A stretch of DNA of 64,000 nt from an uncultured Acidobacteriota bacterium (GTDB lineage: Bacteria > Acidobacteriota > Vicinamibacteria > Vicinamibacterales > CAVPJW01), in contig CAWGYQ010000009.1 of the NCBI GenBank assembly GCA_963826865.1, positions 14,570 through 78,569 of the forward strand, read 5' to 3'. The number at the start of each line of letters is the position of its first letter. Position 1 is the stretch's first letter. The notes under the pieces are model-generated. The model did not search any database. It was not told the origin of the DNA and worked only from the letters and a program-made list of their open reading frames with translations. Below are positions 8,951 through 60,565 of this stretch, in pieces. A program made the translations under genes and the position numbers.

Positions 8951-8954
8951 GGGT

Positions 8955-43454: not shown

Positions 43455-43598
43455 TCAGCGGACGAAGTACTGCTCGAGTCCCCACAACAGGAACATCGTC
43501 ACGGCCTGCACCAGCATGACGGCCACATACATGCCTGTCTGGCTTCCATCGTTCTGCGCGCCAGCCGGGATGTCCGGTGTGGTGCGGGAATCCGTCAT
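43455..43598 (-). CDS. 47-aa single-TM micro-protein upstream of the symporter (possible symporter accessory subunit)
   Basis: MTDSRTTPDIPAGAQNDGSQTGMYVAVMLVQAVTMFLLWGLEQYFVR. Its ATG (43598) overlaps the upstream stop (ATGA), and it ends 6 nt before the symporter start. Confidence 0.5.
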   Translation of the reverse strand: MTDSRTTPDIPAGAQNDGSQTGMYVAVMLVQAVTMFLLWGLEQYFVR

Positions 43599-45049: not shown

Positions 45050-45087
45050 GGAAGAAAGTATAGTCTCTGGCGTTGGAGGGGACGGCT

Positions 45088-45549
45088 GTGACCGAGATCG
45101 AGCGCATCCAGGATCAGATCCGGCGGGTCTACGAAGGCGACGCGTGGCACGGCACGTCCACGCACGAGATCCTCGCGGGCGTGCCGGCGGCCGTGGCGGT
45201 CAAGCGCGTGCAGCCAGCCGTCCACACCATTTGGGAGCTTGCGCTTCACATGACCGCCTGGCGCACGGTGGTCGTGCGACGGATCGAAGGCGAGGCGGTC
45301 GAGCTGTCACACGAGGCCGACTGGCCGCGACGACAGGGAGAAACCGAGGAAGACTGGCGACGGATCCTGGACGAGCTCGACCGCAGCCAGGAACGTCTGC
45401 TCGATGCGGTGGGCTCGATGACCGATGCCCGTCTGGGCGACGCCGTACCGGGCAAGGATTACGACTATTACGTGATGCTGCAGGGCATCGTGCAGCACGA
45501 TGCCTATCACGCGGGCCAGGTGGCGCTCATGAGGAAGCTCCTGGCGTAG
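45088..45549 (+). CDS. DinB-family (DinB_2) metal-dependent protein
   Basis: WHGTSTHEIL...HTIWELALHMTAW...GIVQHDAYHAGQVALMRK (His triad). Start moved from the TTG at 45073 to the GTG at 45088, which has GGAGG 8 nt upstream. Confidence 0.75.
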   Translation: MTEIERIQDQIRRVYEGDAWHGTSTHEILAGVPAAVAVKRVQPAVHTIWELALHMTAWRTVVVRRIEGEAVELSHEADWPRRQGETEEDWRRILDELDRSQERLLDAVGSMTDARLGDAVPGKDYDYYVMLQGIVQHDAYHAGQVALMRKLLA

Positions 45550-45579
45550 TGAGGCGGGGCCACCCGCTATAATCGGAGC

Positions 45580-46990
45580 ATGCGTTTCTCATTTTTGCTC
45601 CTGTCCCTTGCTCTCGTCCTCTCGCCACGCGAGGCCCTCGCCCAGGTCGATGCGCCGTCGCAGGCCCTGGCGCGCGAGATCTACAAAGAACTCGTCGAAA
45701 TCAACACCACCGATTCGGTGGGCGACAACACGGCCGCGGCGAACGCCATGAGCAAGCGGCTGCTCGCCGCAGGGTTTCCTGCCGAAGACGTCCGGGTGCT
45801 GGGGACCCAGCCACGCAAGGGCAACCTGGTGGCGCGCCTGCGCGGAACCGGTGCCCGCCGGCCGGTTCTGCTCCTGGCGCACCTCGATGTCGTCGAGGCG
45901 CGAAAGGAAGACTGGTCGGTCGATCCATTCGTCTTCCTCGAACGTGACGGCTTCTTCTACGGGCGCGGCACCTCCGACGACAAGGCGCAGGCGGCCATCT
46001 GGATCGCCAATCTCATTCGCTACAAGCAGGAAGGCTTCATGCCCGATCGCGACCTCATCGTCGCGCTGACGGCCGACGAGGAAGGCGGCGACTTCAACGG
46101 CGTGAGCTGGCTGCTCGAACACCATCGCGATCTGATCGACGCGGCGTTTTGTCTCAACGAGGGCGGAGGCGGACAGATCAAAGGCGGGAAGTACCTGCTG
46201 AACGAGATCCAGGCGAGTGAAAAGGTGTACCAGAGCTTCAAGCTGGAGGTGCGCGACTCGGGCGGCCACAGCTCGCTGCCCCGCCCCGAGAACCCGATCT
46301 ACAGACTGGCTGCGGGCTTGACCCGTATCGCGCAGTTCACGTTTCCGGTGACGCTCAACGAGGTGACACGAACGTTCTTCGAACGCATGGCACTGCTCGA
46401 ATCCGGCCAGCTGGCATCCGACATGCGTGGCGTGATCGCGCCGACGCCCGATCCGGCTGCCGTCGCGCGCCTGTCGAGCTCCGCGTACTACAACGCCCTG
46501 CTACGCACGACGTGCGTGGCCACCCAGCTTCTGGGCGGGCACGCCGAGAACGCGTTACCGCAGCTGGCTACCGCAACCGTCAACTGCCGCATGCTCCCGG
46601 GCTCGAAGCCTGAAGACGTCAAGGCAACGCTCGTCGGCGTCCTCAACGATGCGCGGATCACGGTGACGCCGGTGGCCGAATCGAGGCCCAGCGATCCTTC
46701 GCCGCTCTCCGCCGATGTGATGGGCCCGGTCGAAGCCGTCACGAACAGCATGTGGCCCGGCATGCGGGTGGTGCCGACGATGAGCACTGGCGCGACGGAC
46801 GGACTGTTCCTCCGCAATGTCGGCATTCCAACATACGGTCTGTCCGGTCTGTTCGAGGACATCGACGACACACGGTCGCACGGCCGCGACGAGCGGATGG
46901 GCGTCAAGCAGGTACTACGACGGGCTCGAGTTCCTTTACCGACTGGTCAAGGCGATGTCGTCGGGCCCAGCCTCGTCTCAGCATCGCTGA
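45580..46990 (+). pseudogene. M20-family metallopeptidase (secreted), C-terminus displaced by a +1 frameshift at ~46912
   Basis: LLLAHLDVV, GRGTSDDKAQ, ALTADEEGG, SGGHSS. After ...HGRDERMGVKQ the conserved tail YYDGLEFLYRLVKAMS continues in the next frame and stops at 46988-46990. An extra g sits in cag-g-tac. Confidence 0.8.
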
Positions 46991-47024
46991 GTCGCCTGCC
47001 GCCTCAGGAACGTCTCGCGCGACC

Positions 47025-47750
47025 ATGCACCGCGAGTACCACCGCTGGCATTCTCCGCGCCTGGCGCGCGACATGGGCCTGATGGTCTACGGTCACTGGG
47101 GCCCGCCGATGCTCGCCTTTCCGACAAGCGGAGGTGACGAGCGGGAGCTGGAACAACAGGGCATGATCGGCGCCCTCGCCGATTTGATCGATGGCGGACG
47201 CGCCAAGGTGTTCAGCGTGGGCAGCGTCAACCAGGAGTCGTTCTACAACCGCTCGGCCCACCCCGCCCACCGAAGCTACGTGCAGGTTCAGTTCGACGCG
47301 TACGTGCGCCACGAAGTCGTGCCGTTCATCGAGAATCACTGCCAGACGCGGGGGATCGCCGTCACCACGATGGGAGCGTCGTTCGGCGCGTATCACGCGG
47401 CGAACACGCTGCTCAAGCATCCCGAGATCGTCAAACGATGCTTCGCGCTGTCGGGAATCTACGACCTGAGACGCTTCATGGACGGGCACTCCGACGACAA
47501 TTTCTATTTCAACAACCCCATCGACTATGTGGAAGGGCTCGACGATCCGACCGTTCGCCTGCACCTTTCGACCTGCGAGATTCGCCTGGCCACGGGATCG
47601 GGACCGTGGGAAAACAGTGTGCCGACCTACGCCATGTCGGCCGCGCTGACGAGCAAGGGCATCGCACATCACCTGGACGACTGGGGAAGCGAAGGCGGAC
47701 ACGACTGGCCCTACTGGCAGCGCCAGATGCGTACGTACCTCGGCGGATAG
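47025..47750 (+). CDS. Putative esterase-family (esterase D/PF00756-like) serine hydrolase
   Basis: MHREYHRWHSPRLARDMGLMVYGHWGPPMLAFPTSGG...; nucleophile elbow GASFGAYHA; ...GGHDWPYW. Start is the ATG at 47025 within ORF 46752..47750. Confidence 0.7.
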   Translation: MHREYHRWHSPRLARDMGLMVYGHWGPPMLAFPTSGGDERELEQQGMIGALADLIDGGRAKVFSVGSVNQESFYNRSAHPAHRSYVQVQFDAYVRHEVVPFIENHCQTRGIAVTTMGASFGAYHAANTLLKHPEIVKRCFALSGIYDLRRFMDGHSDDNFYFNNPIDYVEGLDDPTVRLHLSTCEIRLATGSGPWENSVPTYAMSAALTSKGIAHHLDDWGSEGGHDWPYWQRQMRTYLGG

Positions 47751-47846: not shown

Positions 47847-48845
47847 TCACGGAGCGTGACGTCCCAGTCGGGTCAGGGCACTATTCAGGAACGTTCGATC
47901 GGCAAACACCGGCGCGCGATCGTAATCGGGCAGCACTCCTGCGCGCGCGAAAAAGTCCGCCGTTCGCTTGACCTGATCATCGTCGAGCCCCCCGTCGACC
48001 GGCCAGATCCCCGATTCCACGTACTCACGCGACACCGCCGCCAGATCCTCGCCGGTGTTCAGGAACGCCGCAGCTTCCGATGCCAGGCGCTGATGATCAC
48101 CTGCGATGGTCCTGAAGGCTTGGAGGCAGGCCTCGATGTACTCCTGCACCATGTCCGGATGCGCGCGCGCGAAGCCGGTGTGAGCAAACGTCGCGCGCAT
48201 GACCATGCCCGGCCAGCGGACGCCGAAGTCCTGAAGAACGGCGAGCTGCCGCCCGGTTTGCATCTCTATCGCGAGCGCATCCGATCGCTGGACCACGGCG
48301 GCGTCGACGGCACCCGCCAGCAGCGATGCCGTGCGCGTCGCGGAGCCGGGAATATAGATGAGAGTTGGAACCGCCTCCGGGCACTCGTCAGCCAGATACG
48401 CGCGCAGGAGAATCGTGCCCGACGATCCCGGGCTGTGCAGGCCGATGCGTCCTCTCGCCAACCCGGCGCAGGTCGCGGTTGCAGGCGCCACGAGCACGTT
48501 GTTGTCGAGGGCGTCCTGCAGCACGGCAACGACCGGGGCGCCCTTGACGGCGGCCGCCCACAGAACACGCGTCGAGCCCAGGAGGAAATCGGCATCGCCC
48601 CGGGCGATGGCGGCCGCAGCGACCTCCGGCTGCGCATAGTAGGTGGTGGTCACCACATGGCCGCGCTCCCCCAGCGAGCGATGAGCCATGAGGGTGGGCG
48701 TGTCGGCGAAATTGATGGCCGACGAGAAGGCCACACGCAGCGGAGGTCGCTCCTCGCGCACCTCCGAAGAGCACGACGCGACGAACAGAGCGAGGGCGGC
48801 ACCGCGCGCCAGGACCGAGCGGCGCAAAGATCGGCGCGGGGTCAC
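47847..48845 (-). CDS. NMT1/SsuA-like periplasmic substrate-binding lipoprotein (paralog 1, most divergent)
   Basis: Lipobox ALFVAS-C. Type-II PBP-like layout shared with the paralogs at 50460 and 51476 (LRVAF...TPTLMAH...GDADF...VLVA...GLHSPGSSG...AGAVDAAVV). ATGA overlap with the upstream gene. Confidence 0.65.
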   Translation of the reverse strand: MTPRRSLRRSVLARGAALALFVASCSSEVREERPPLRVAFSSAINFADTPTLMAHRSLGERGHVVTTTYYAQPEVAAAAIARGDADFLLGSTRVLWAAAVKGAPVVAVLQDALDNNVLVAPATATCAGLARGRIGLHSPGSSGTILLRAYLADECPEAVPTLIYIPGSATRTASLLAGAVDAAVVQRSDALAIEMQTGRQLAVLQDFGVRWPGMVMRATFAHTGFARAHPDMVQEYIEACLQAFRTIAGDHQRLASEAAAFLNTGEDLAAVSREYVESGIWPVDGGLDDDQVKRTADFFARAGVLPDYDRAPVFADRTFLNSALTRLGRHAP

Positions 48846-50425
48846 GACGACGCCGCGCCCGCGTAATGGAGCGCGAGAATCTTCGACGTCGAGGTCGCGT
48901 ACGGATCGCGGCGTGCGATACGCAACGTGTCACCATCTCGCCAGCGATCCGCCATCATGGCCTGCGCCGGCCCGCCGCGGGCGAGCGCATCGAGGACCGC
49001 CGCGCGGATCTGCTGCTCGTCGATCTCGCCCAGTCGTGGACTGACGAGCAAATCGACTCTCGTGAGACCGTTTTCCTCCGTCTCGACGAACTGGTAGTCG
49101 GTCGGGTTGCCTCCAAACGCTGCCGGCAGCACGCGATCGATGACGTCGAGGAGCTCTTCGCCGATGAAGTGCATGCCTTCGCTGGTGAGCTTCTCGTGGC
49201 TCCGAACGTGATGGAGATGTCGAAGGAATCCGAGCTCGTCGAGGCCGCAGCCACAACGCCTCTGCGTCACCTTCGCGTAGTCGCCGCTGTCGACGTTCAA
49301 CATGATCTTGGGCGAGGCGGGGTGGATGGTCGTGAGAAAGAGCGCGTCCACGCGCGCCCCGCCGCCCACTGCCAGCGGACGCTGAATCATGGCCAGTTTG
49401 TGCTCGAGAAAATGCACTTCGTCGAGTGCGGCGGGTGACGCGCACGCCAAGCCGATCCGGCCTACCTCGGCCATCGAGTAATGAGCGAAGGCCCCCGCGC
49501 CGGCTTCGGCGATCACGCGCGCCTTGCCGTCCGTATAGGGCTCGCCGCCCGTGCGGAACAGCGACCCGGCGATGTCAAGACCGCGATCAAGGGCAGTCCG
49601 GCAAACGCGCACACACGTTGACACGCTGGCATCGAGCAGCGCGGGCTCGCCGAGCGACTTCTGATGAGCGAGCCACGTGGCCACGCGCCAGGCCTCTTCC
49701 AGCCGCGTGTAGCGGGGCCACGGCACGGCGCCACCCAGAGCCTGGCCGGTGAGGGCGGAGAAGATGGTCAGCACACTGTGGCGCGCGTTTCCCTGACGGA
49801 ACGATATCGGCTGCTGGGTGAACCAGCGCCGAAGCGGACGGCCCTGCTTCGCTCGGCGAAGCGCGGTCTTGAGCCCGGCGGAGCCGGGAGGTACGGGACG
49901 CCACATCCCTGCCGGCCGCGCGAGGCCCTCGATGGTCTTGGCGACGACCATTTCAACGCGCGCTTCATCCGACAGCAGAGCGAGATCGAGCACCATGCGC
50001 CGGCGCACGCCGCGCGATCCGCCGGACGACAGCGTGAAATCGCCGGCGATGAGGGCGTTGTCGAAGCTCGTCGGCGAGACTTCGATGTCGATCCCGGGCC
50101 GGCGAATGGGGTGGCGGCCTTTGAACTCGGCGAGGCTCAGACGCACGCCCGCGTTGTAAAGGCGTTCGAGCGCGCTTTCGACCCCGTCGCGCTCGACCAG
50201 CGGCACGACGTCACCCAGTTCCACCCCTGCGTGCCTGAGAAGCGACAGGTAAGGACTCGTTGGCTGTCGGAAGACGGCGTGGTCGAGCAGCCGCAGAAAG
50301 GCCGGGCCGCGATCGGCGATTGACTGGCGAATCGGCTCGTCGATCGAGTCGGGGTCGATCGGGGTGGCGAGATAACGCACGAGACCGCGCGCATAGCGCA
50401 GTCCCATGGCGGCGGATGCAAGCAT
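48842..50425 (-). CDS. Hypothetical protein, possibly a divergent adenylate-forming enzyme (PaaK/coenzyme-F390-synthetase/GH3-like)
   Basis: 527 aa. SSGGSRGVRRR sits where the ANL/PaaK P-loop (SSGTTGxP) would be. TGGEPYT-, HYSMAE- and C-terminal EKLTSEGMHFIGEELLDVI...YQFVETEENGLTRVDLLV resemble a PaaK-type C-terminal lid. By-eye only. Confidence 0.35.
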   Translation of the reverse strand: MLASAAMGLRYARGLVRYLATPIDPDSIDEPIRQSIADRGPAFLRLLDHAVFRQPTSPYLSLLRHAGVELGDVVPLVERDGVESALERLYNAGVRLSLAEFKGRHPIRRPGIDIEVSPTSFDNALIAGDFTLSSGGSRGVRRRMVLDLALLSDEARVEMVVAKTIEGLARPAGMWRPVPPGSAGLKTALRRAKQGRPLRRWFTQQPISFRQGNARHSVLTIFSALTGQALGGAVPWPRYTRLEEAWRVATWLAHQKSLGEPALLDASVSTCVRVCRTALDRGLDIAGSLFRTGGEPYTDGKARVIAEAGAGAFAHYSMAEVGRIGLACASPAALDEVHFLEHKLAMIQRPLAVGGGARVDALFLTTIHPASPKIMLNVDSGDYAKVTQRRCGCGLDELGFLRHLHHVRSHEKLTSEGMHFIGEELLDVIDRVLPAAFGGNPTDYQFVETEENGLTRVDLLVSPRLGEIDEQQIRAAVLDALARGGPAQAMMADRWRDGDTLRIARRDPYATSTSKILALHYAGAASS

Positions 50426-50459
50426 GAGATGGCGGCCGCCCTTTGGCCCGCCTCAAAGT

Positions 50460-51479
50460 CTAGTCCATGGTGTTTGCAGCAGCGCGTGTCACGCGTCCGA
50501 TTGCCTGAAGCACGCGATCGAGGAAGGAGCGGTCGACGAACGCCGTCGCGTCGGCGTCGGGAGGGAGACTGCCGGCTCGGACGTAGAACTGCCGCGTGTC
50601 TCGGACCGACTCGGGCGTCATCCCTCCATTGACGTCCCAGGTGTCCGCACGCACGAATTGAGTGGCGGCAGGCAGCAGATCCGTGTCGCTTCCCAGCAGA
50701 GTGCTCGCAACAGCGGCGAGCCGCGCCGGATCGCCGCCGATTGTGCGATGCGCCGACAAACAGGCCGCGATCATGTCGTCCACCGCCTGAGGATACGCGC
50801 GCGCGAACTGCCGGTTGACGATCAAGCCGGTAGTAGCCACGTTGGGCCAGCGCCGCGCAAAGTCCTCGATCAACCCGATCGACTCCGGTGCGCGACGCTC
50901 TGTTTCAACGACGTGCTCACGCATGAGCGTGGCGGCATCGACAGCGCCCGCCAGGAAGGCCGCTGCACGGTTGGCGGGGCCGATCATGATGAGCATCTCG
51001 GGCTTCGTGCCCGGGCATTCCTCCGCGATGTACGCCCTCACGAACGCCCCGCCGATTGCGCCCAGACTGTTCAACGCGAGCTTTCGTCCCGCCAGATCGC
51101 GACACTGCACGATCGAGCGTGAGGCGACCAGGAGGTGAGTGTTGCGCGCCTGCTCCATGACGGTCACGACGGGAGCGCCTCGTGCCGCCGCCGCCCAATA
51201 GGTCGGGAGCGCACCGAACGCGACGTCGGCGTGGCCACCCGCCAGCGCCTCCGCGGCCAGCTCGGTTTGCGCGTAGTGGGTGCTTTCGATCTCGTAGCCC
51301 TGCTCGACGAGCCGCTGCGCGGCCACGAGCGCGGGTACGTCGCTCATGTTGGGAGCCGTCGTGCCGGCGACCCGAATGAGCGTCGAGCCCGGGGAGCGAG
51401 CGCTCCGCTCGCAGCCAGAACCAATCGCAACGGCCAGCGCGCAGGCGAGGGCGCCGGCTCTCACGGGGAAGGCCGTCAC
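50460..51479 (-). CDS. NMT1/SsuA-like substrate-binding lipoprotein (paralog 2)
   Basis: Lipobox AIGSG-C. About half of the residues are identical by eye to paralog 3 (…EQGY.IES..YAQT.LAA.ALA.G..DVAFG...TYW.AA.RGAP...VME.AR...LVAS...). Confidence 0.7.
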   Translation of the reverse strand: MTAFPVRAGALACALAVAIGSGCERSARSPGSTLIRVAGTTAPNMSDVPALVAAQRLVEQGYEIESTHYAQTELAAEALAGGHADVAFGALPTYWAAAARGAPVVTVMEQARNTHLLVASRSIVQCRDLAGRKLALNSLGAIGGAFVRAYIAEECPGTKPEMLIMIGPANRAAAFLAGAVDAATLMREHVVETERRAPESIGLIEDFARRWPNVATTGLIVNRQFARAYPQAVDDMIAACLSAHRTIGGDPARLAAVASTLLGSDTDLLPAATQFVRADTWDVNGGMTPESVRDTRQFYVRAGSLPPDADATAFVDRSFLDRVLQAIGRVTRAAANTMD

Positions 51480-52513
51480 GACGCAGGCACGGCGCGAGAC
51501 GGTTGCCGCCCGACGACATCGAGTGCGCGATCCAGAAAGCTGCGGTCGATCATGCTGTCCGGATCGGTGTCGGCCGGCACCGCCCCGGCCCGAGCGAGAA
51601 ACTGCACGGTCCTGGTCATGACGTGCGGCGTCAGGCCACCATTGAGATCCCAGGAGTTGGCCTGCACGAACGCCGTCGCCGTCGGCAGATAGTCCTTGTC
51701 GCCGGCGCCCAGCAGGGATTGGGCCAGGCGTGCCAGCCGCACCGGGTCGTGAGCCACGGCGCGATGTTCAGCAAGACAGGCGATCACGAGATCGTCGATG
51801 CTCTGCGCATGAGCACGCGAGAACGGCACGTTGACCATGACACCCGTGATGGCGATATCCGGCCAGCGAATGCCGAAATCTTCGACCAGCCCGATGCGGT
51901 CGGGAGCGCGCTGCTGGATCTCGATGAAATCCTCACGCATGACGGCAGCCGCATCGACGGCCCCCGCGAGAAACGCGGCCAGCCGTGTGGGCGATCCCGG
52001 CATCACCAGCACATGAGGCTCGGTACCGGAGCATTCCTCGGCAAGATAGAACTTGAGAAGCGACGCGCCGCTGGCGCCCAGCCCGTTGACGGCGAGCCGT
52101 CTCGCCGACAGGTCCGAGCACTTGGTGATGGGCTTGGATGCCACCAGGACGTGGTGGATGCGCGCCAGCTCCATGACCGCCGCGATCGGCGCACCGCGCG
52201 AAGCCGCAGTCCAATAGGTGGAGAATCCTCCAAACGCGACGTCCACGTCGCCAGCGGCGAGCGCCTGCGCCGCCAGCGCGGTCTGGGCGTAGTCGATGCT
52301 CTCGATCAGGTACCCCTGTTCTTTGAGGCGTCCAAGGGCCGCAATCGCCGGCACGTCGGCGAACGTCGCGGTGTTCGCGATGCGAAGCCGACGCGGAGAG
52401 TCCCCGGCCTTTCTGCTTTCGCTCGCGCAGCCTTCGGTGAGCCCCAAAAGCGCGACAGCAGCGAGAACCCCCTGAAAGGTCGCCGAAGGGTGGCGGCGAA
52501 GGATCGGCACCAT
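51476..52513 (-). CDS. NMT1/SsuA-like substrate-binding lipoprotein (paralog 3)
   Basis: The 711-aa ORF 51476..53611 is trimmed to the ATG at 52513 (MVPILRRHPSATFQGVLAAVALLGLTEG-C). The upstream part of that ORF overlaps the M29 gene out of frame. ATGA overlap with paralog 2 (51476-51479). Confidence 0.7.
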   Translation of the reverse strand: MVPILRRHPSATFQGVLAAVALLGLTEGCASESRKAGDSPRRLRIANTATFADVPAIAALGRLKEQGYLIESIDYAQTALAAQALAAGDVDVAFGGFSTYWTAASRGAPIAAVMELARIHHVLVASKPITKCSDLSARRLAVNGLGASGASLLKFYLAEECSGTEPHVLVMPGSPTRLAAFLAGAVDAAAVMREDFIEIQQRAPDRIGLVEDFGIRWPDIAITGVMVNVPFSRAHAQSIDDLVIACLAEHRAVAHDPVRLARLAQSLLGAGDKDYLPTATAFVQANSWDLNGGLTPHVMTRTVQFLARAGAVPADTDPDSMIDRSFLDRALDVVGRQPSRAVPAS

Positions 52514-52515
52514 TC

Positions 52516-53559
52516 CTACTCCATCCCCAGACGGTCGAGCAAATATTGCCCCCTGACGATGACCGGCTCGTCGTCCAACCACACATTGCAGTCGCGGGTC
52601 AGGACGTCGATATGGGTCGAGGAGTTCCACTGCGCGCCCGTCTGAGTGCCGTAAGGATCCCCGAAGGCCAGATGAACACCCGGGAACTTCTCGTCCTGGA
52701 GCAGCACGCCGATGAACTCCGTCAGGCCGAGATTGGTGCCGAACGCCAGCTCCCCCACGCGATCGCTGTTCTCGTCGGTGTGGCAATACTCCCAGAACTC
52801 GTGCTCGAGCTCGGTGCGCTCCGAGCGGGCTTCGACGAGACGGCCCCCTTCGATCGTCAGCACCAGTGGTGTCGCTTTGAGATCGCCGTACTTGCGGTTG
52901 AAGTAGTCGCCGGCCGTGGCGTCGCACACGAACGTGCCGTCGACGCGGCCCGGGGTCGTGAAGACTTCCCCCGCCGGCAGATTCGACCAGTACCGCGGGC
53001 TGATGAGACCGCTCGTCTTGATCCACGCATGCGAGGCGTCGAAGCGCGCCGTGAACGCCGTGCCGGCATCCGTTCTCACGCTCAACGATTGCGCATGGGC
53101 GAGCCGCGCCAGGAGCCGATCGCTCAGCCGATCGATCCGGCGGTAGTCGGCGCGCATACCCTGCTCCATGATGGCGGGAGTGACGCCGATCATGTGCGCG
53201 TAGCGGATCTGACATCGCTCGACGACCGCCACGATCGCCATGCGTGACGACAGCTCGCCCTCGAGAGGCTGGATGCAGAGGATCCCGACGTCGGCCCGTT
53301 CCAGCGCGTCCAGCACTTCGACGGGCGGCTCGCTCAGAGGACGCGGCGCCAGGTCCTCGAGCACACAGCCCGTCCAGGATGCGCCTCGGTCGGTGAGCGC
53401 ACGGGACAGGGCCGCGGCGACTTCGAGGCTGGCTTCGTCGGCGATGAGGGCGACGCGCTCGCCTGCCTGAACGGCCAGACACGTCTCGATAGCGTTTCGG
53501 GCACCAGGCAGCAGCGCCGGATTCAGCGGCGCAAGTGACTCCGTCGTGCGATCGCTCAT
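52516..53559 (-). CDS. M29-family aminopeptidase (AmpS/PepS/aminopeptidase T-like)
   Basis: Start at the ATG at 53559 (ATGA overlap with the upstream stop). LPAGEVFTTP, VGELAFGTN, LLQDEKFPGVHLAFG, NSSTHIDV motifs. Confidence 0.8.
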   Translation of the reverse strand: MSDRTTESLAPLNPALLPGARNAIETCLAVQAGERVALIADEASLEVAAALSRALTDRGASWTGCVLEDLAPRPLSEPPVEVLDALERADVGILCIQPLEGELSSRMAIVAVVERCQIRYAHMIGVTPAIMEQGMRADYRRIDRLSDRLLARLAHAQSLSVRTDAGTAFTARFDASHAWIKTSGLISPRYWSNLPAGEVFTTPGRVDGTFVCDATAGDYFNRKYGDLKATPLVLTIEGGRLVEARSERTELEHEFWEYCHTDENSDRVGELAFGTNLGLTEFIGVLLQDEKFPGVHLAFGDPYGTQTGAQWNSSTHIDVLTRDCNVWLDDEPVIVRGQYLLDRLGME

Positions 53560-54929
53560 GACCGTTCGTGCCCGGTCCACTCCGAGACGACGAAGGCTGG
53601 CACCTGGCCACCCCCGGAGCTCACATTGGCCAGGCCCGTCGCGCTCAGCCGCGTCAGAAAACCGGACAGCCGACCGCGAAACAAGTACGGCGCCAGATCG
53701 ACCAGCACGTCGCGCATCGCAACCGGGTGTCCCGCCTCGAACTGCGGAAAAATCTCGCGTCGCACGGGAATGCGCTCCTGGACCACCCACGCGCCCGTTT
53801 CCCCGCCCGTCGCCGTCTCGATGGTCCGATCCCAGAGAGCCTCGCTCGTCTCCCAGCCCAGCGTCACCCCGTGGCCGCCGTAGTCGTCATTCGGCTTGAT
53901 CACCAGCGTTTCCCGGCGCGAGCGCACGAAGGGCAGCAGATCGATCTCCTGCTCGCCGTAGTGGGTCCGCGTGTCTCGAAGAAGTCTGGTCCACGGAATG
54001 TGATCGCCAATCAGCCCGCGCTCTTCCTGGCTGAACAGACGGCGGTTTCGCTCGTCGGTCAGCACCGCGAAGAACGCCTTCTTGTGCGGGATCTTGCAGC
54101 GCAACGTGTTGGCCATGCAGATTGCGCGCGACCGGTAGGCCTCGATCAAGGCCCCGGACTCTTCCGGACGCGCGATGATGTCGTTGATGAGCACGCGGCG
54201 GTACACCAGGTCGATCGGCTGGCCGAGCGCCGTCAACCGCTTCCCGTCGAATTCGAGGTCGCGCGGATCGCAGACGATCGTCGGAACGCCGCGGGCGACA
54301 AACCGATCGCGGAGGATCTCGAACTCGGACCAGGTGGGCACTTCGCGCCAATCGACGATCGCCACGAGCGGCGGCGACTTGGTGCCGCCCCACTCGCGAT
54401 AGCTGGCGAGCAACGCCTCGAGCATCGAGGCCGAGAGCGGGTAGCTCTGTGTGCCATACCTCTCGCGGAAGCGCGCCATGATCTCGAGCGGATCGAACAG
54501 CTCGGCGAGCGTCTCCGTATAGCCCAGGCCCGCGGGCGACTCGGCGTTGTACTCGGCGAATTTCAGCGCGTCAGGCAACAGGAAGGCGTCGAGCCTCGAG
54601 GCCGTGCTCGCCGTGCCGTAGCCGGGGTCGAGGCGGACGAGCCGCTCCTCGGCGTCCGTCAGGGCGAACTGGCCGAGCAGATCCGGGTCCTGGAGCGCTT
54701 CGTTCGTGACGCGCTCGCCGATGGCGGCCAGCGCTTCCGCGACCCGGCGCACGCGGCGCTCGTCGGCGGCATCGATGAAGAAGGGGCGGAGGAACGGACA
54801 GTGCACGCGCCCGCCGAATGTCAGGCGCGCCCCGCGCATCCTGCCCGTAAGTTCCTCGCCGAAGCCGGGAGACAGCTCCACGTCCTCGCGGAGGAGCGAC
54901 TGCCAGTAGGACGCGGCCGCGGGCATCAT
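53556..54929 (-). CDS. ATP-grasp-superfamily amidoligase, glutathionylspermidine-synthase (GspS/YgiC)-like or circularly permuted ATP-grasp-like
   Basis: Start at the ATG at 54929 (ATGA overlap). SRLDAFLLPDALKFAEYNAESPAGLGY (pre-ATP-grasp motif R.D....g.lK..EyNa.sP), VIKPNDDYGGHGVTLG, WVVQERI, LVDLAPYLF, TRLSATGLANVSSGGGQVPAFVV. Confidence 0.55.
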   Translation of the reverse strand: MMPAAASYWQSLLREDVELSPGFGEELTGRMRGARLTFGGRVHCPFLRPFFIDAADERRVRRVAEALAAIGERVTNEALQDPDLLGQFALTDAEERLVRLDPGYGTASTASRLDAFLLPDALKFAEYNAESPAGLGYTETLAELFDPLEIMARFRERYGTQSYPLSASMLEALLASYREWGGTKSPPLVAIVDWREVPTWSEFEILRDRFVARGVPTIVCDPRDLEFDGKRLTALGQPIDLVYRRVLINDIIARPEESGALIEAYRSRAICMANTLRCKIPHKKAFFAVLTDERNRRLFSQEERGLIGDHIPWTRLLRDTRTHYGEQEIDLLPFVRSRRETLVIKPNDDYGGHGVTLGWETSEALWDRTIETATGGETGAWVVQERIPVRREIFPQFEAGHPVAMRDVLVDLAPYLFRGRLSGFLTRLSATGLANVSSGGGQVPAFVVSEWTGHERS

Positions 54930-55894
54930 CGGCCTTGCGGGGCTCCGACGAACCCGGACGACGCGGCCAGGCCGAGCATCTCCTCCCAGCGAGGCCACGC
55001 CTGGCCAGGCTGGCCGTTCAGCGCGCGGTCGATCACGAGGTCGGCCATCTTCTTGACGACGAGATCGAAGTAGAACGGCGTGATCCGATCGCGCTCGAAG
55101 TCGGGCGCCGGGTTCAGGAAGTCGATCGCATATGGCACATCGTCGCGAATGGCGAACTCGATCGTGTTCATCTCGTAGCCGAGCGCCGTGTTGAGGATTC
55201 GGGCGTCGCGGACGACGCGCTCGCCGACGTCGGCGGAGAGATAGTGGTGGTCCACGATATAGCGCCGATCCCGGACGTCGTACGCCACCGGCGTGATGTC
55301 GGTCTTGCCGAACGTGAAGCACCGCACGTACTGGTTGAAGTCGATGAATTCCTGGAGCGTCATGCAGTACGGCGCCGTGCGATCGTAGGCGGCCAGCAAT
55401 TCCTCCCGGTTTCGCACCTTGTAGACGTGCTTCCAGCCGCCGCCGGAAAACGGCTTCAGGATGGCCGGCCGTCCCACGTAGTCGAGCAGAGCATCCCAGT
55501 CGACGGGGTACTCGAGATTGCGCAGCGATTCGGGCTGAATGTCCACGTCGGCCGGATAGGCCTTCTGCGGCAACAGCACGGTACGCGGCACGGCCACACC
55601 GAGCCGCGAGGCGACCGAGTAATTGAAGAACTTGTCATCGGCCGACCACCAGAACGGGTTGTTGATCACATACGCGCCGTGCAGCACGGCGTGCTTGAGA
55701 TACCCGCGGTAGAAGTCCACTTCGTGCGAGATGCGGTCGACGACTACGCGGTATTCGGCGAGCTCGCCCAGCCGCACGCCGCCCAGCCGCACCAGCTCGG
55801 CCGTTACGTCGTGCTCGCGGCCGAGCGTGTTCACCGCGTCGAGGAATGCGGACGGAAACGAATGCTCCCGTCCGCACAACAATCCAACCTTCAT
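54926..55894 (-). CDS. ATP-grasp domain ligase (RimK/GshB-like size, 322 aa)
   Basis: AILKPFSGGGWKHVYKVRNREELLAAY, MTLQEFIDF, YVRCFTFG, NTIEFAIRDDVPYAIDFLN. ATGA overlaps on both sides. Confidence 0.7.
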   Translation of the reverse strand: MKVGLLCGREHSFPSAFLDAVNTLGREHDVTAELVRLGGVRLGELAEYRVVVDRISHEVDFYRGYLKHAVLHGAYVINNPFWWSADDKFFNYSVASRLGVAVPRTVLLPQKAYPADVDIQPESLRNLEYPVDWDALLDYVGRPAILKPFSGGGWKHVYKVRNREELLAAYDRTAPYCMTLQEFIDFNQYVRCFTFGKTDITPVAYDVRDRRYIVDHHYLSADVGERVVRDARILNTALGYEMNTIEFAIRDDVPYAIDFLNPAPDFERDRITPFYFDLVVKKMADLVIDRALNGQPGQAWPRWEEMLGLAASSGFVGAPQGR

Positions 55895-57022
55895 GCGGTC
55901 CCCTTCGAAGCCACACTGTGACGATCGAGCACGCGCGTCTCCTGCACGACGTGCTGCACGACGGCGCGCAGGTCGCCGGTTTCACGATAGACGCGAAGCT
56001 GGCGGTCGGCGCTGGTGCCCTCGGCCAGAATCGTGTGGACGTAGCTCACTTCCTCGCGGCTCCCGAGCTCGTCGAGCGACATCGTCCACAAAGGCCAGGA
56101 GCTCGAGCGTCAAATCTCGCATCGGCACCTCGGTGCGCTTGCCGAAGTCGATGAGGTTGCCGTCCAGGCCGTAGCGCGAGGCGCGCCACTTGTTCTCCTC
56201 GATGAGCGCGCGCCGGTAGAGCCGGAAGCCCAGGTTCTTCTCGTAGAGCTTGTGGAGCTTCACGATGATGGCCTGGATGAGCGCGGCGATCGCGATGGTC
56301 TCTTCGACGCGAGTCGGGAGATCGCAGACGCGGAACTCGAGCGTGCCGTAATAGGGATGCGGCCGCACGTCCCACCAGATCTTCTTGCCATCGTCGATGC
56401 AGTGGAGATCGGTGAGCAGCTTGACGAAGTTCTCGTACTCGCTCCACGAGCCGAAATGATCCGGAATGCCCGTGCGCGGAAATCGCCGGAAGACGGTGGC
56501 GCGGTACGACTTCAGGCCGGTGTCCCGTCCCATCCAGAACGGTGAGCTCGTCGAGAGCGCCAGCAGGTGCGGCAGGAAGTACCGCGCGGCGTTCATGAGA
56601 TCGATTGTCGTGTTCTTGTCGGGCATCGCCACGTGGACGTGCAACCCGAAGATGAGCAGTGAGCGGGCGAGCTGCTGCAGCTCTTCGACGATGTGCTTGT
56701 AGCGCTCGCCGGGCGAGATGACCTGATCGATCCAGCTCGAAAAGGGATGAGTGCCCGCCGCCGCCACGCAGAGGCCGACATTCTCGGCGGCCGTGACGAG
56801 CTGCTCGCGGTTCTTGGTGAGCTCCACGCGCAACTCGTCCATGTCGGCGCAGATATGCGTGCCGACCTCGACGATCGACTGGTGCAGCTCGCGCCTGATC
56901 TGCTCGCCCAGCGTCTTCGCGCTCGATTCGATCAGGTGCGTGACGTGCGAGCGCAGCTCCCACGTCTCGGGATCGACGATCTGAAACTCTTCCTCGACGC
57001 CTAGCGTGAACCGATGTGACAT
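55891..57022 (-). pseudogene. Carboxylate-amine ligase, YbdK/GCS2 (glutamate-cysteine ligase family 2), interrupted by a +1 frameshift at ~56080
   Basis: MSHRFTLGVEEEFQIVD..., ELHQSIVEVGT, GLHVHVAMPD, WWDVRPHPYYGTLEFRVCD. After ...LLAFVDD the conserved tail SLDELGSREEVSYVHTILAEGTSADRQLRVYRETGDLRAVVQHVV continues in the frame of ORF 55891..56091. Confidence 0.85.
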
Positions 57023-57075
57023 GACCACCACCTGCAAGACCCGCCCACCGAGACGCGGGTATCATAGCCCGGCCC

Positions 57076-58683
57076 ATGCCTGCTTTTCGAATCCGCGCGC
57101 GCGCAGCGCGGGGCTACGCGAGCGGACCCGCGTTCGAAACCAATCCCGAGGTGCTGCAGGCGTTTCTGGAAGACGCGGCTCACCACGCCGGTGGCCACGC
57201 CGCCTCCATCGCCTTCCCCACGACCGAAGCGGAGGTCGTTGCCGCCCTCCACGCCAGCCGACGCATCCTGCCGATCGGCGCGCAGTCGTCTCTGACCGGC
57301 GGCGCCACGCCGGATGGCGACACCCTGCTCGGCTTCGCACGCATGAATCGGATTGTGGAGATCGACCGCACGCGTGTTCGGGTCGAGCCAGGCGTGCCGC
57401 TCCAGACGCTGCAGGAGACACTCGACCCGCATGGTCTCTGGTACCCGCCTGTCCCGACCTTCGCCGGCGCGTTCGTCGGAGGGACGGTGGCCACCAACGC
57501 CGCGGGAGCGGCAACATTCAAGTACGGCAGCACGCGCGCGTGGGTGGACGCGCTCACAGTCGTGCTCGCGTCTGGCGATGTACTCGATCTCACTCGGGGC
57601 GAGGTCGTCGCGAGCCCCGACGGGCATTTCGAGATCGACACCCACCACGGGCGAATCGACGTCAGGGTCCCCACCTACAGGATGCCGGACGTGCCCAAGC
57701 GATCGGCCGGCTACCATGCGGCGCCTGGCATGGATCTGGTCGATCTGTTCGTCGGCTCGGAAGGCACGCTGGGTATCGTCACGGAAATCACACTGCGCGT
57801 GTTGGACGCCGTCCCATTGAGATGCCTGGCGCTGGTGCCTGTGTCGAGTGAAGCCGATGGATTGAAGCTGGTGTCGATACTGCGCACCGAATCGCAGAAC
57901 ACCTGGAGGGGCGATTCACGTGGCATGGACGTGAGCGCGATCGAGCACATGGACCGCCGGGCCATCGAAGTCCTCGTCGAGGACGGCCACGACCGGCGCC
58001 TGGGCGTGAGCTTTCCCCCGGCCGCTGCCATGGCCCTGCTGGTGCAACTCGAGCTCCCCTCGGGCACGACGGCCGAGCGCGCGTACGCGGAGATCGGGAG
58101 CGCACTCGATTCCAGCGCGCCGGACACGCCTCTCGTCCGCTTCGCGAGAGTGCTGGAGGAATTGGGCGCACTCGATTGCACCGAGATGGCGATGCCGGGC
58201 GACGCTCGACGCCGCGAGCAGCTGCTCGCCGTGCGTGAAGCGGTGCCGACGTCGGTGAATCACCGGGTCGCCTTGGCGAAGAGCTGGATCGATTCGACCA
58301 TCTCGAAAACTGCCGCTGACGTCATTGTGCCCTTCCACCGTTTTGCCGACATGATGGCGCGAACGCGCGAGGCCTTCGAACGTCACGGCCTTGACTACGC
58401 CGTCTGGGGCCACATCTCCGACGGCAACGTGCATCCCAATCTCATCCCGCGGTCATTGGCGGACGTACGGGCCGCTCATGAAGCGATTCTGGAGCTGGGA
58501 CGCGACGCGATCATGATGGGAGGATGTCCGCTGGCCGAGCACGGGGTCGGCCGAAGCCCGCTGAAGCAACGGTTGCTCGTCGAGCTCTATGGAAGCGAGG
58601 GAATCGAGGAGATGCGCCGCGTGAAGCGCGCACTCGATCCCGAATGGAAGCTGGCGTCCGGAGTGCTGTTCCCGCCGATGTAG
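57076..58683 (+). CDS. FAD-linked oxidase (GlcD/D-lactate dehydrogenase-like, FAD_binding_4 + C-terminal oxidase domain)
   Basis: AFPTTEAEVVAAL...ILPIGAQSSLTGGATP, RVEPGV.LQTLQE, GGTVATNAAGAATFKYG, GSEGTLGIVTEITLRV, C-terminal GCPLAEHGVG. Divergent from the ligase operon (53-nt spacer). Confidence 0.8.
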   Translation: MPAFRIRARAARGYASGPAFETNPEVLQAFLEDAAHHAGGHAASIAFPTTEAEVVAALHASRRILPIGAQSSLTGGATPDGDTLLGFARMNRIVEIDRTRVRVEPGVPLQTLQETLDPHGLWYPPVPTFAGAFVGGTVATNAAGAATFKYGSTRAWVDALTVVLASGDVLDLTRGEVVASPDGHFEIDTHHGRIDVRVPTYRMPDVPKRSAGYHAAPGMDLVDLFVGSEGTLGIVTEITLRVLDAVPLRCLALVPVSSEADGLKLVSILRTESQNTWRGDSRGMDVSAIEHMDRRAIEVLVEDGHDRRLGVSFPPAAAMALLVQLELPSGTTAERAYAEIGSALDSSAPDTPLVRFARVLEELGALDCTEMAMPGDARRREQLLAVREAVPTSVNHRVALAKSWIDSTISKTAADVIVPFHRFADMMARTREAFERHGLDYAVWGHISDGNVHPNLIPRSLADVRAAHEAILELGRDAIMMGGCPLAEHGVGRSPLKQRLLVELYGSEGIEEMRRVKRALDPEWKLASGVLFPPM

Positions 58684-58690
58684 CGCCGGC

Positions 58691-60565
58691 CTACGACCCG
58701 CCTTTGCTGCCCAACCACTCTTCTCTGAATTTTTTCTGAGCCGCTGTCAGCGAGCGGTCAGTGGACTCGACCGTCACGATCTCGCGGCGCGGGTCGGGCT
58801 CGAGCGTGACCGATGCGGCAACCCGCTGACCGCCGCGGCGTCGGTAGGTGATTGGCACGATCTCGCCGGGTGCGCGGCGCCGCAGCACTCCATCGAGCCG
58901 GCTGCGATCCGTCAACGCCTCGCCGTCGAGCGTCGCGATCACATCGTCCTGATCGAGGCCGGCCTGATAGGCTGGCGAACCAATCGGCGTCGGTGCATCG
59001 ACGCGGGCTCCGTCGGCCGAGAAGTCCAGATTCAGATCGCCGATCCATGCGGCGCGCGGCGATCGCGCGACGAGCGCGAGCCCGGCACGCGACAGGAGAC
59101 GCTCGTAATCCGGCACCTCGTGTCCCGCGACGTAGCGGTTGATGAACGCCTCGGCGAAGGCGGCATCTCCGCTCACCGCCGCGAGACGCGCCGTCACGTC
59201 TTCGGCCGTGTAGGGCCGATCGACGAATCCCGGTTGACGGCCACCGGGCTTGCCGAAGTTCGTCCACAGATCGCGCTGGAGGTCGTCGAGCGTCACCCGC
59301 CCGTCTGTCCGATCCCGGAGCGCCAGGTCGAGGCCCAGGCCAATTGCCGCGCCCCACGTGTAGTAGGAGATAAAGGTGTTGCCCCAGTTGGTGCGATCAA
59401 CCGCGCGGGCCTCGTCGACGAGCGGCGCCAGACGGCTCATCTCTTGCGCGCTGCGAATGCGACGGGCCGGCGAATTGGTCACCTGGTTGATGAGGCCGGC
59501 GAAGTCGGTCAGGGTCTCGGAAAGCGACTGCAGCCTGGCGCGGTGCATCACCAGCAGCTCGTAGTAGCTGGTGACGCCCTCGGCGAGCCACAGCTCGGGC
59601 GACATGTTGGCGTCGGCCAGATTGAACGGTTCCAGCGAGCGCGGGCGAATCCGTTCGACGCTCCAGCCGTGAAACAACTCGTGCGCCGCATTCGACAGGA
59701 TCGCCGAGCGAGCGCTGGAATCGGCGGGCGAGCCGGGAACGGTGATGATGGTGCTGTTGCGATGCTCCATGGCGTCGCCGTCGGCCCACGGCAGGCAGTC
59801 GGCGAGAAACGTGTAACGTCCGACATCGTAGCGGGGGAACTCGCCGAAGATAGCGCCCTCTTCGCGGGCGATCTTCTCCAGGTCCGACGCCAGGCGGATG
59901 GCGTCGTCGTCGGAGCCACCATGGAGCGCCAGCCGGAAATCGGTGCGGGCCGTCCCGCGTGTGACGAAGAAGTCACGCACGGTGTGCCGCGACACCTCGA
60001 TCGGGCTGTCCATGAGGTACTGGAGGTTGGGCGCCGTGAACGTCAAACCGTCCTCGCCCGCGAAAAGCTGAGTGGCCACGCGCCAGTCCGACCCTGGCGG
60101 CGGCTCGATGGCGACGCGCGAGGGACGATCTTCGAGCCCGCGCGCCCACATCAGCGCAGCCGGCATGTTGATGTGAGCGTGCGTCGAGTCGACCGCGAGG
60201 TAGGTGCCGTCGAGCTGATCGCCGTACACCTTGTAGCGCACGCGCACGGTGCCGCCGTGCCCGGCGACCCGCCATTCATGGAGACTGGGTCGCGTAATGC
60301 TCACGCTTCGATCCCCGCCACCGACGATGACCACGTCGTAGACGTTCTTTGCGAATTCGTGCAGCGCGTAGCGTCCGGGCGAGCTGCGGCTCATGTGCAG
60401 CTCGAGATCGGCATCTCCGATCTCCGGAAACGTCACCTCGACGTGCATCGTGCGGTGCTCGGCGTCCGGAAAGGTCAGCCGGTAACCGACCGGCGTCTGG
60501 GCAAGAGCCGGCAGCGCCCACACGCCCCACAGAACGGCAATCGCAGCGATTCGTATCAACGGCAT
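58691..60565 (-). CDS. M61-family glycyl aminopeptidase with C-terminal PDZ domain, secreted
   Basis: Signal peptide; SSPGRYALHEF; zinc motif AAHELFHGWSVERIRP; C-terminal PDZ-like GSPAYQAGLDQDDVIATLDGE. Confidence 0.85.
   Translation of the reverse strand: MPLIRIAAIAVLWGVWALPALAQTPVGYRLTFPDAEHRTMHVEVTFPEIGDADLELHMSRSSPGRYALHEFAKNVYDVVIVGGGDRSVSITRPSLHEWRVAGHGGTVRVRYKVYGDQLDGTYLAVDSTHAHINMPAALMWARGLEDRPSRVAIEPPPGSDWRVATQLFAGEDGLTFTAPNLQYLMDSPIEVSRHTVRDFFVTRGTARTDFRLALHGGSDDDAIRLASDLEKIAREEGAIFGEFPRYDVGRYTFLADCLPWADGDAMEHRNSTIITVPGSPADSSARSAILSNAAHELFHGWSVERIRPRSLEPFNLADANMSPELWLAEGVTSYYELLVMHRARLQSLSETLTDFAGLINQVTNSPARRIRSAQEMSRLAPLVDEARAVDRTNWGNTFISYYTWGAAIGLGLDLALRDRTDGRVTLDDLQRDLWTNFGKPGGRQPGFVDRPYTAEDVTARLAAVSGDAAFAEAFINRYVAGHEVPDYERLLSRAGLALVARSPRAAWIGDLNLDFSADGARVDAPTPIGSPAYQAGLDQDDVIATLDGEALTDRSRLDGVLRRRAPGEIVPITYRRRGGQRVAASVTLEPDPRREIVTVESTDRSLTAAQKKFREEWLGSKGGS

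Follow-up and report, generated by a model that had tools for sequence, protein, structure and literature searches.

Eight consecutive co-directional open reading frames (ORFs) lie on the minus strand between positions 47847 and 57022 of a 64,000-nucleotide stretch of DNA from an uncultured Acidobacteriota bacterium (contig CAWGYQ010000009.1); we refer to the whole stretch as the window. The ORFs appear to form one operon that consists of two modules. Module A is built around three ligases, usually accompanied by a metallopeptidase-like protein and a convergent hydrolase, and it recurs across phyla. Module B is a cassette of three binding proteins and a predicted adenylate-forming enzyme; it is a separate evolutionary module, found in other contexts and restricted to this clade. 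The operon as a whole probably serves to assemble a small amide-linked metabolite step by step at the expense of ATP and to turn it over, with the cassette as a clade-specific accessory for uptake and acyl activation.

The first gene encodes a carboxylate-amine ligase of the GCS2/YbdK family (below, GCS2; 55891-57022), split by a frameshift and 376 amino acids (aa) long once repaired. It is followed by a 322-aa classical ATP-grasp ligase (54926-55894), recognised by its predicted fold and without a Pfam model, by a 457-aa circularly permuted ATP-grasp ligase of type 2 (CP-grasp; 53556-54929; PF14403), and by a short, 347-aa protein resembling M29-family metallopeptidases (M29; 52516-53559; Peptidase_M29). 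Next come two NMT1/SsuA-type binding proteins with Pfam NMT1 matches, SBP1 (51476-52513) and its paralogue SBP2 (50460-51479); then X527 (48842-50425), a 527-aa enzyme that by predicted fold is PaaK-like and adenylate-forming (ANL superfamily); and finally SBP3 (47847-48845), an NMT1-type paralogue of SBP1 that matches NMT1_2 and NMT1.

An earlier interpretation made from the letters alone, here called the sequence-only reading, had described eight chained minus-strand genes joined by five ATGA overlaps. ORF coordinates and junction sequences agree with the chain, and the two gaps it listed, of 2 nucleotides (nt) at 52514-52515 and of 34 nt at 50426-50459, are exact. All five 4-nt start/stop overlaps are present too, but only three of them are ATGA (55891-55894, 54926-54929 and 53556-53559); those at 51476-51479 and 48842-48845 read GTGA, GTG being the start codon of SBP2 and SBP3. 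A 4-nt overlap is the commonest junction of co-directional bacterial genes and not unusual by itself. Here the overlaps indicate an operon, and between ATP-grasp and CP-grasp the 4-nt overlap is also the median across loci.

A relative at 94% DNA identity, the 1.1-Mb metagenomic contig L001, carries all eight genes in unchanged order. Its differences from the window cluster at third codon positions in all eight genes, for instance in 55 of 67 substitutions in GCS2, 32/41 in CP-grasp, 31/40 in M29, 90/131 in X527 and 47/74 in SBP1. All eight are therefore under purifying selection. Homologues were found for each of them as well, and on this comparison we take all eight to be real coding genes.

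Conservation of the core was counted in those fetched loci, 71 in number, where CP-grasp reaches at least 55% identity to that of the window; each denominator is the loci with room for the gene in question. GCS2 is present in 64/64 and the classical ATP-grasp in 69/69, while M29 occurs in 58 of 67 and a convergent PF00756 hydrolase, at 60-67% identity, in 54 of 63. The arrangement is thus a fixed trio of GCS2, ATP-grasp and CP-grasp, usually followed by M29 and the convergent hydrolase. The hydrolase is usual beside the core and is also found in the window (47025-47750, plus strand, convergent on the operon); therefore the conserved unit is a five-gene module, whose last member the boundaries of the sequence-only reading omit. 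In general the core proteins remain 55-79% identical even across phyla. A scan of one genome per species finds CP-grasp relatives in at least 591 species genomes. The carriers are mostly metagenome-assembled genomes of Acidobacteriota (Acidiferrales, Terriglobia, Vicinamibacteria), and further records are labelled Verrucomicrobiia, Gammaproteobacteria, Dormiibacterota, Ca. Cybelea and Methylomirabilota.

The other half of the operon behaves differently: in a set of 80 other core loci, a homologue of an SBP or of X527 is found in 0/80. Co-localisation, by which the sequence-only reading had proposed to judge the cluster, thus holds for the ligase trio and largely for M29 and the hydrolase, and it fails for the SBPs and X527. 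The eight genes do not make up a single conserved unit, as all four genes of the cassette are missing from 80/80 of the other core loci. Several further genes, none of them in more than 19 of 80 loci, were also considered as extended core partners and put down to synteny: a second esterase, DinB_2, an O-methyltransferase, another ATP-grasp, a molybdenum enzyme, enolase and GlgC.

Some loci depart from the usual core arrangement. In a distant variant from Pyrinomonadaceae (L081 10001-13521, L087 9986-13540), CP-grasp, here 44% identical, is followed by a PilZ-domain protein, a 177-aa protein and then GCS2, while the ATP-grasp lies about 5 kb off on the other strand; loci of this type yielded no further functional clue. 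In L002 (Acidiferrales) a transfer RNA (tRNA) gene at 7458-7531 lies in the 790-nt spacer upstream of GCS2, and a DDE transposase lies between M29 and the hydrolase.

The enzyme families that the sequence-only reading proposed for the core stand up to profile and structure searches. GCS2, expected to be YbdK/GCS2-like, matches Pfam GCS2 at 1.1e-63 (215.7 bits, cut-off 21) and the NCBIfam model PRK13515 'carboxylate-amine ligase' at 474.7 bits (cut-off 371). Its closest solved homologue is E. coli YbdK (1r8g, 2.5e-53), and a GhExE-type motif, GVEEE, stands at residues 8-12.

The 322-aa protein, anticipated as an ATP-grasp of RimK size, has no Pfam match, and its match to TIGR00768 rimK_fam (8.9e-10, 38.4 bits) is below the cut-off of 143.4. 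Its AlphaFold2 (AF2) model (pLDDT 77.3, pTM 0.78) is matched by Foldseek with probability 1.00 to MdnC, Ddl, RimK and LysX/ArgX, at E-values from 9e-12 (MdnC) to 5e-10 and with TM 0.63/0.71 to RimK. The model thus predicts the three-domain ATP-grasp fold. The protein is 70-77% identical in four compared loci and 74-87% among database homologues.

For the third ligase a GspS/YgiC-like or circularly permuted ATP-grasp had been suggested, and it belongs to CP_ATPgrasp_2. The window protein matches PF14403 at 3.7e-6 (26.6 bits), all 19 of 19 aligned homologues match the same model (best 1.2e-11), and homologues at 65-98% identity carry precomputed PF14403 annotations. The family is large, with more than 7000 homologous clusters.

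The M29 call also holds, in that Peptidase_M29 is matched above its cut-off (2e-14, 53.7 bits against 27), covering profile positions 193-353 of 406 only. Among solved structures the matches are NicX (7e-8) and AmpS (0.005). We take the five metal ligands of AmpS-type enzymes to be Glu, Glu, His, His and Asp. All five positions are kept: E198 (PAGEVFT), E270 (VGELA), H296 (GVHLAFG), and H316 and D318 (THIDV) are invariant in eight orthologues, with the first three aligning with AmpS motifs and the last two with the H/D of NicX. Unlike NicX, the protein retains the peptidase-type acidic ligands; it is of the binuclear-metal, peptidase-like kind, and aminopeptidase activity is predicted for it. 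The convergent hydrolase is a PF00756 'putative esterase' of the alpha/beta type (Esterase 1.7e-14) with a GASFG nucleophile-elbow motif.

The position of M29 is variable in a few lineages. In Vicinamibacteria-type core loci, which by GCS2 identity are closest to the window, M29 is absent and a protein of about 375-380 aa follows CP-grasp (L040 11373-12515 and L065 11383-12510, both plus strand and 57% identical to each other; also L050 and L072). It gave nothing in Pfam, NCBIfam or PDB sequence searches or in hhalign against M29. Its VCHTFG and NHHPE motifs resemble a Cys-His-Glu amidotransferase-type hydrolase, a likeness that no tool confirmed; if it is such a hydrolase, one peptidase has been swapped for another. 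In three further loci a PhzF-like convergent gene takes the M29 position directly after CP-grasp (L031 11473-12225, L041 11485-12387 and L074 11351-12256, all minus strand).

Module A, that is 52516-57022 plus the convergent hydrolase at 47025-47750, is in this reading the widespread CP_ATPgrasp_2/GCS2 amidoligase module. Each of its ligases, GCS2 with a glutamine-synthetase fold, the classical ATP-grasp and the circularly permuted one, presumably converts a carboxylate to an acyl-phosphate and then joins it to an amine. We infer that the three act on one product, in which case as many as three amide bonds could be made in a small peptide of non-ribosomal origin or an amino-acid conjugate, probably of the gamma-glutamyl type. 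The predicted M29 metallo-aminopeptidase and the serine alpha/beta hydrolase would trim the product or turn it over. As the sequence-only reading had said, the operon contains no non-ribosomal peptide synthetase module.

Module B (47847-52513) occupies a well-defined place. The spacing between M29 and the hydrolase has a median of 63.5 nt in most genomes, and in the window it is the site of the 4.7-kb block SBP-SBP-X527-SBP. All three SBPs score above the Pfam NMT1 gathering score of 20.5 bits, which bears out their description as NMT1/SsuA-like binding proteins: SBP1 at 3.2e-9 (37.4 bits), SBP2 at 1.9e-13 (51.3 bits) and SBP3 at 1.1e-4 (22.7 bits), the last also matching NMT1_2 at 1.4e-5. Matches of SBP1 (1.5e-12) and SBP2 (8e-21) to SsuA_fam are below the cut-off. 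In the paralogue alignment SBP1 is 50% identical to SBP2 and 37% to SBP3. Read by eye, each SBP has a hydrophobic, signal-peptide-like N-terminus followed by a Cys near residue 29, and a canonical lipobox (VASC) is seen in SBP3 only.

X527 has no Pfam match, AMP-binding included, and no NCBIfam match at E<=0.01. The suggestion that it might be a PaaK/F390/GH3-like adenylating enzyme is borne out at the level of the predicted fold. Its AF2 model (pLDDT 89.7) finds PaaK1 in Foldseek at 2e-16 and BT_0428 with TM 0.58/0.69, so that X527 is modelled as a two-domain ANL protein with a PaaK-like adenylate-forming fold. An HMM alignment to a PaaK-type ligase covers GGEP, YxxxE, GD and CxC. E320, D382, C391/C393 and, near the C-terminus, K515 are invariant; the alignment with the PaaK-type ligase is partial, and the motif equivalences are our own reading. 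The family is sizeable, with 1193 clusters at 50% identity (E<=1e-30).

In the proposed division of labour, the three extracytoplasmic binding lipoproteins would capture a solute, which a permease encoded elsewhere would bring in, and cytoplasmic X527 would convert a carboxylate to an acyl-adenylate. Module B may in this way supply or derivatise a building block of the module A product, or feed the breakdown of that product.

The alternative that survives best is that the eight genes are mere neighbours: the cassette would have landed in the M29-hydrolase spacer by chance and be functionally unrelated to the ligases. We regard this as unlikely, though it accounts well for the absence of the cassette from all 80 other core loci. 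It also agrees with the company that X527 keeps elsewhere. Relatives at 42-50% identity lie in clusters with glycosyltransferase, PMT_2 and lipid-A-acyltransferase genes or have methyltransferases, asparagine synthase (AsnB), TonB-type receptors, Nramp and M28 peptidases as neighbours, and an SBP is adjacent in only 6 of 80 metagenomic X527 loci. The close relatives tell against chance. Those at 55-70% identity are always flanked by NMT1-type SBPs, and in JGI contigs three of the closest lie beside Esterase/DinB_2 (with M20 in one) and a fourth beside M29. As these contexts are met again at 65-70% identity, the association has outlived substantial divergence. Further, the cassette is tied into the operon by the 2-nt gap and two GTGA overlaps. 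That it is kept at the hydrolase end of the core within one clade argues for some functional link, not for core membership.

Some observations concern the X527 family in its own right. In JGI contigs the SBP-X527-SBP cassettes are often preceded by DUF6962 and an FAD-binding oxidase (FAD_binding_4). In L007 (Thermodesulfobacteriota) two X527 paralogues (1029-2663 and 8001-9578) lie inside a cell-envelope cluster with glycosyltransferases, PMT_2, a polysaccharide deacetylase, an acyl carrier protein, an AMP-binding enzyme and a lipid A acyltransferase. Such a setting may mean that surface glycoconjugates are modified by the wider family. Clustering and annotation of the neighbours of the 80 metagenomic loci, aimed at a partner constant throughout the family, gave none that is universal. 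A frequent upstream neighbour of about 330 aa was ruled out as an SBP (hhalign probability 0.1).

Several points weigh against the two-module reading. For module A, adjacency of three ligases need not mean one shared substrate molecule. The CP-grasp of the window scores 26.6 bits, below the Pfam gathering score of 32. The nearest solved relative of the M29-like protein is the dioxygenase NicX, not a peptidase, and 9 of 67 loci lack M29 or have another gene in its place, so that trimming by it is not obligatory. The frameshift in GCS2 could be real. For module B, the lipoprotein status of the SBPs is read by eye, with the canonical lipobox limited to SBP3. No permease or ATPase lies near the SBPs, either in the operon and about 40 kb around it or within 10 kb on either side in L001. 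The absence of an ATP-binding cassette (ABC) permease or ATPase from the operon agrees with the sequence-only reading; the only ORF of the 64-kb window with LSGGQ/Walker-A motifs is at about 7505. The glycine-rich loop of X527 is SGGSRG, not the ANL consensus S-G-T-T-G-x-P-K. Given the unrelated contexts of its distant relatives, the tie of X527 to module A could be mere clade synteny. Finally, in the literature we found neither experimental work on the module nor a product, a substrate or a phenotype assigned to one of its five core proteins.

A more specific form of the two-module reading is a low-molecular-weight thiol pathway, in which GCS2 makes gamma-Glu-Cys, the ATP-grasp adds a third residue, CP-grasp adds an amine and the product is then recycled by the hydrolases. 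By enzyme class the three ligases correspond to GshA (or EgtA), GshB and GspS, the ATP-grasp is named 'glutathione synthase' by some sources, and the sole PDB sequence match of CP-grasp is 3n6x, a 'putative glutathionylspermidine synthase', at a non-significant E of 0.096. DinB_2 genes recur nearby; DinB_2 proteins are often thiol-dependent transferases, and PF00756 includes S-formylglutathione hydrolases. These neighbours are circumstantial, and there is no sign of cysteine specificity. GCS2 passes the generic carboxylate-amine ligase model but is below the cut-off of every NCBIfam glutamate-cysteine ligase equivalog, the best being NF010043 at 347.1 bits against 409. Because of these models we rank the thiol route as a sub-hypothesis, and a quite unlikely one.

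The surroundings of the operon could also be read as pointing to a catabolic role. On the plus strand, DinB_2 (45073-45549; 9.1e-13) and an M20 peptidase (45580-47082; Peptidase_M20 2.5e-25) run into the PF00756 hydrolase gene, giving a string at 45073-47750 that converges on the operon; DinB_2 and M20 are clade-level neighbours. The M20 ORF overlaps the start of the hydrolase by 58 nt, where L001 has a 34-nt gap, so there may be a small indel at the 3' end of M20. On the other side a GlcD-like FAD-linked oxidase (57076-58683, plus strand; FAD_binding_4 8e-30, FAD-oxidase_C 4e-30), a recurrent neighbour, is divergent from GCS2, and beyond it lies an M61 glycyl aminopeptidase with a PDZ domain (58691-60565, minus strand). 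Synteny with L001 (1945-6231) places an arginase and an amino-acid permease beyond the oxidase, and an argininosuccinate-lyase-like gene is at 43595-45049. Counting M61, M20 and M29 as well, genes of peptide and amino-acid metabolism are unusually frequent in this region.

One could thus propose a 'protect-oxidise-deprotect' route of the Puu type (gamma-glutamylation), where the ligases tag an imported amine or peptide, the oxidase modifies it and peptidases release it. Ligase and hydrolase pairs are typical of Puu-type routes, the neighbours are largely degradative, and binding proteins of the uptake type lie inside the operon. However, the oxidase adjoins GCS2 in 5/80 and SBPs occur in 0/80 of the other core loci, the flanking genes vary among genomes, and three different ligases exceed the need of any known tagging route. 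We consider this explanation improbable.

The frameshift in GCS2 raises the question of decay. The reading frame is not intact as sequenced: it breaks by +1 after ...LLAFVDDV, at the cost of about 60 last residues. With one base removed at 56077/56078, the gene again encodes a YbdK-like protein of 376 aa, whose C-terminus is typical of YbdK and which stops in the ATGA overlap. The extra base is missing from L001, which in turn shows roughly ten single-base insertions scattered over M29, SBP2 and X527; its gene calls of 225, 191 and 153+383 aa are artefacts of these insertions fragmenting the three genes. Such an indel pattern is typical of long-read assemblies and, as far as the sequences tell, fits indel error better than decay. 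The frameshift is most likely an assembly error and not the mark of a pseudogene, and we take GCS2 as functional because the extra base is not in L001 and the indels of L001 itself resemble long-read errors. A decaying operon, with GCS2 a true pseudogene and the pathway inactive here, is highly improbable also in view of the third-position bias of GCS2 substitutions (55/67) and the intact downstream genes.

The least probable explanation is post-translational peptide tagging, or a ribosomally synthesised and post-translationally modified peptide (RiPP), with ligases that extend a protein or precursor in the manner of RimK, PafA or graspetide enzymes and M29 as the trimming peptidase: the best fold matches of the ATP-grasp do include the graspetide macrocyclase MdnC and RimK, and the Pup ligase PafA has its nearest relative in GCS2 (PMC2588565), but the similar Foldseek scores for MdnC, Ddl, RimK and LysX speak for a shared fold only, and the small ORF seen most widely, in 9 of the scanned loci, resembles a zinc-ribbon gene. 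Small-ORF clustering found no conserved small ORF around the core, in line with the lack of a precursor-peptide ORF that the sequence-only reading had remarked on, and the RiPP idea was set aside. The widest candidate is a CxxC...CxxC protein of about 77 aa with a glycine run, just upstream of GCS2 in nine Acidiferrum-type loci (L024 7076-7310, L025 1994-2225, L035 1514-1751, L038 7180-7405 and another five). Probably this is a zinc-ribbon gene kept by synteny and not a precursor peptide.

Regulatory signals are few. A weak sigma-70-like -35/-10 pair (TCGAAA-18-TATGAT, 57061-57090, minus strand) lies just upstream of the GCS2 start; it is the sole promoter-like match in the region, yet the count is not above shuffle expectation, and the same scan gave no terminators above chance level. 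GCS2 and the FAD-linked oxidase start divergently, 53 nt apart (57023-57075). The promoter-like site overlaps the oxidase ORF, so one start or the promoter may be misplaced. In an Rfam scan that covered the window and three loci, the window showed no Rfam element or riboswitch and the sole match was the tRNA in L002; scans for tRNA genes and tandem repeats in the window found neither.

Few soil bacteria are more abundant than Acidobacteriota, whose specific metabolism is little known. What is delimited here is a sharply conserved module in which three ligases are always together, usually with two hydrolases, at 55-79% identity across phyla. The analysis also defines a minimal gene set for expression: GCS2, ATP-grasp and CP-grasp, with or without M29 and the PF00756 hydrolase. 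A second, independent object is the PaaK-like enzyme family of about 1200 clusters outside Pfam and NCBIfam, here tied to NMT1-type lipoproteins. The trio, carried mainly by soil Acidobacteriota, might even make an undiscovered, physiologically central small peptide (a gamma-glutamyl redox buffer, stress protectant or nitrogen store?), conjugated in this clade to an imported carboxylic acid that the lipoproteins would capture and X527 would activate, an idea that we hold tentatively and doubt more than we believe. If the product is a general metabolite of soil bacteria the operon matters; if it is one more minor di- or tripeptide, this is routine annotation. Either way the operon is a sound, well-delimited target for product discovery.

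SBP1-3 share with SsuA/TauA/NMT1-type binding proteins the NMT1 scores above cut-off and the signal-peptide-like N-termini. In contrast to SsuA/TauA systems, they are three tandem paralogues without permease or ATPase, and all NCBIfam SsuA and TauA models are below their cut-offs. By its model X527 has the overall two-domain fold of the PaaK family, and its GGEP, YxxxE, GD and CxC segments and C-terminal invariant Lys may correspond to those of that family. It differs in an N-terminus about 100 residues longer and in the SGGSRG loop, and no paa genes are present. E. coli YbdK (1r8g), a weak gamma-glutamyl-cysteine ligase, has the same size and the same GhExE motif as GCS2, but it is a stand-alone gene whereas its homologue in the window heads a conserved multi-ligase operon. 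The classical ATP-grasp shares fold and size with RimK, LysX and Ddl (TM up to 0.71 with RimK), yet at 13-18% identity only and without a match to any Pfam ATP-grasp model; no S6- or LysW-type partner was identified near the core.

Two multi-gene systems offer partial parallels. The CP_ATPgrasp_1 - Alpha-E - transglutaminase - Anbu system, predicted to tag peptides, is likewise centred on a circularly permuted ATP-grasp, and 11 of 19 CP-grasp family members weakly match PF04174. However, the locus has no Alpha-E, transglutaminase or Anbu gene, and the partners are different. The synthesis of glutathione and then glutathionylspermidine by GshA, GshB and GspS relies on the three classes of the trio in a corresponding logical order, first a gamma-glutamyl-type ligase, next an ATP-grasp of about 320 aa and then a permuted ATP-grasp amine ligase. 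Here there is no significant sequence match to GshB or GspS, and GCS2 falls outside the glutamate-cysteine ligase equivalogs. Moreover, the three Gsh and Gsp genes are not known to form one operon with peptidases in any organism.

The closest precedent is the gene neighbourhood of PF14403 itself. The CP_ATPgrasp_2 family of Pfam is prototyped by a Roseiflexus protein, and besides a GCS2-like ligase its neighbourhood has two peptidases, one with an alpha/beta-hydrolase fold and one of the M20 family, and a GAT-II-like amidohydrolase. This neighbourhood was reportedly predicted to make small peptides by Iyer, Abhiman, Burroughs and Aravind in 2009 (Mol Biosyst 5:1636), and PF14403 is said to have been defined for it. 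Four of these five features are common to the window: CP_ATPgrasp_2, GCS2 (two genes upstream of CP-grasp), the alpha/beta-hydrolase and M20. No GAT-II-like amidohydrolase is among the genes scanned (43.6-60.6 kb), and with the window M20 as query no M20 was found in the 80 other core loci at the thresholds used. The 2009 Iyer et al. reference is listed in PMC4431377. The claim of the sequence-only reading that the combination maps to no characterised pathway is thus true experimentally, whereas its core matches this neighbourhood and had already been predicted. The core has been flagged by comparative genomics, and what is new is the whole-operon variant with its cassette, not an unprecedented architecture. 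The published description reportedly names no second, classical ATP-grasp, M29, NMT1-type lipoproteins or PaaK-like enzyme. To that neighbourhood the family of the window adds an invariant ATP-grasp (69/69) and a usual M29 (58/67), and in the window clade only, the SBP/X527 cassette.

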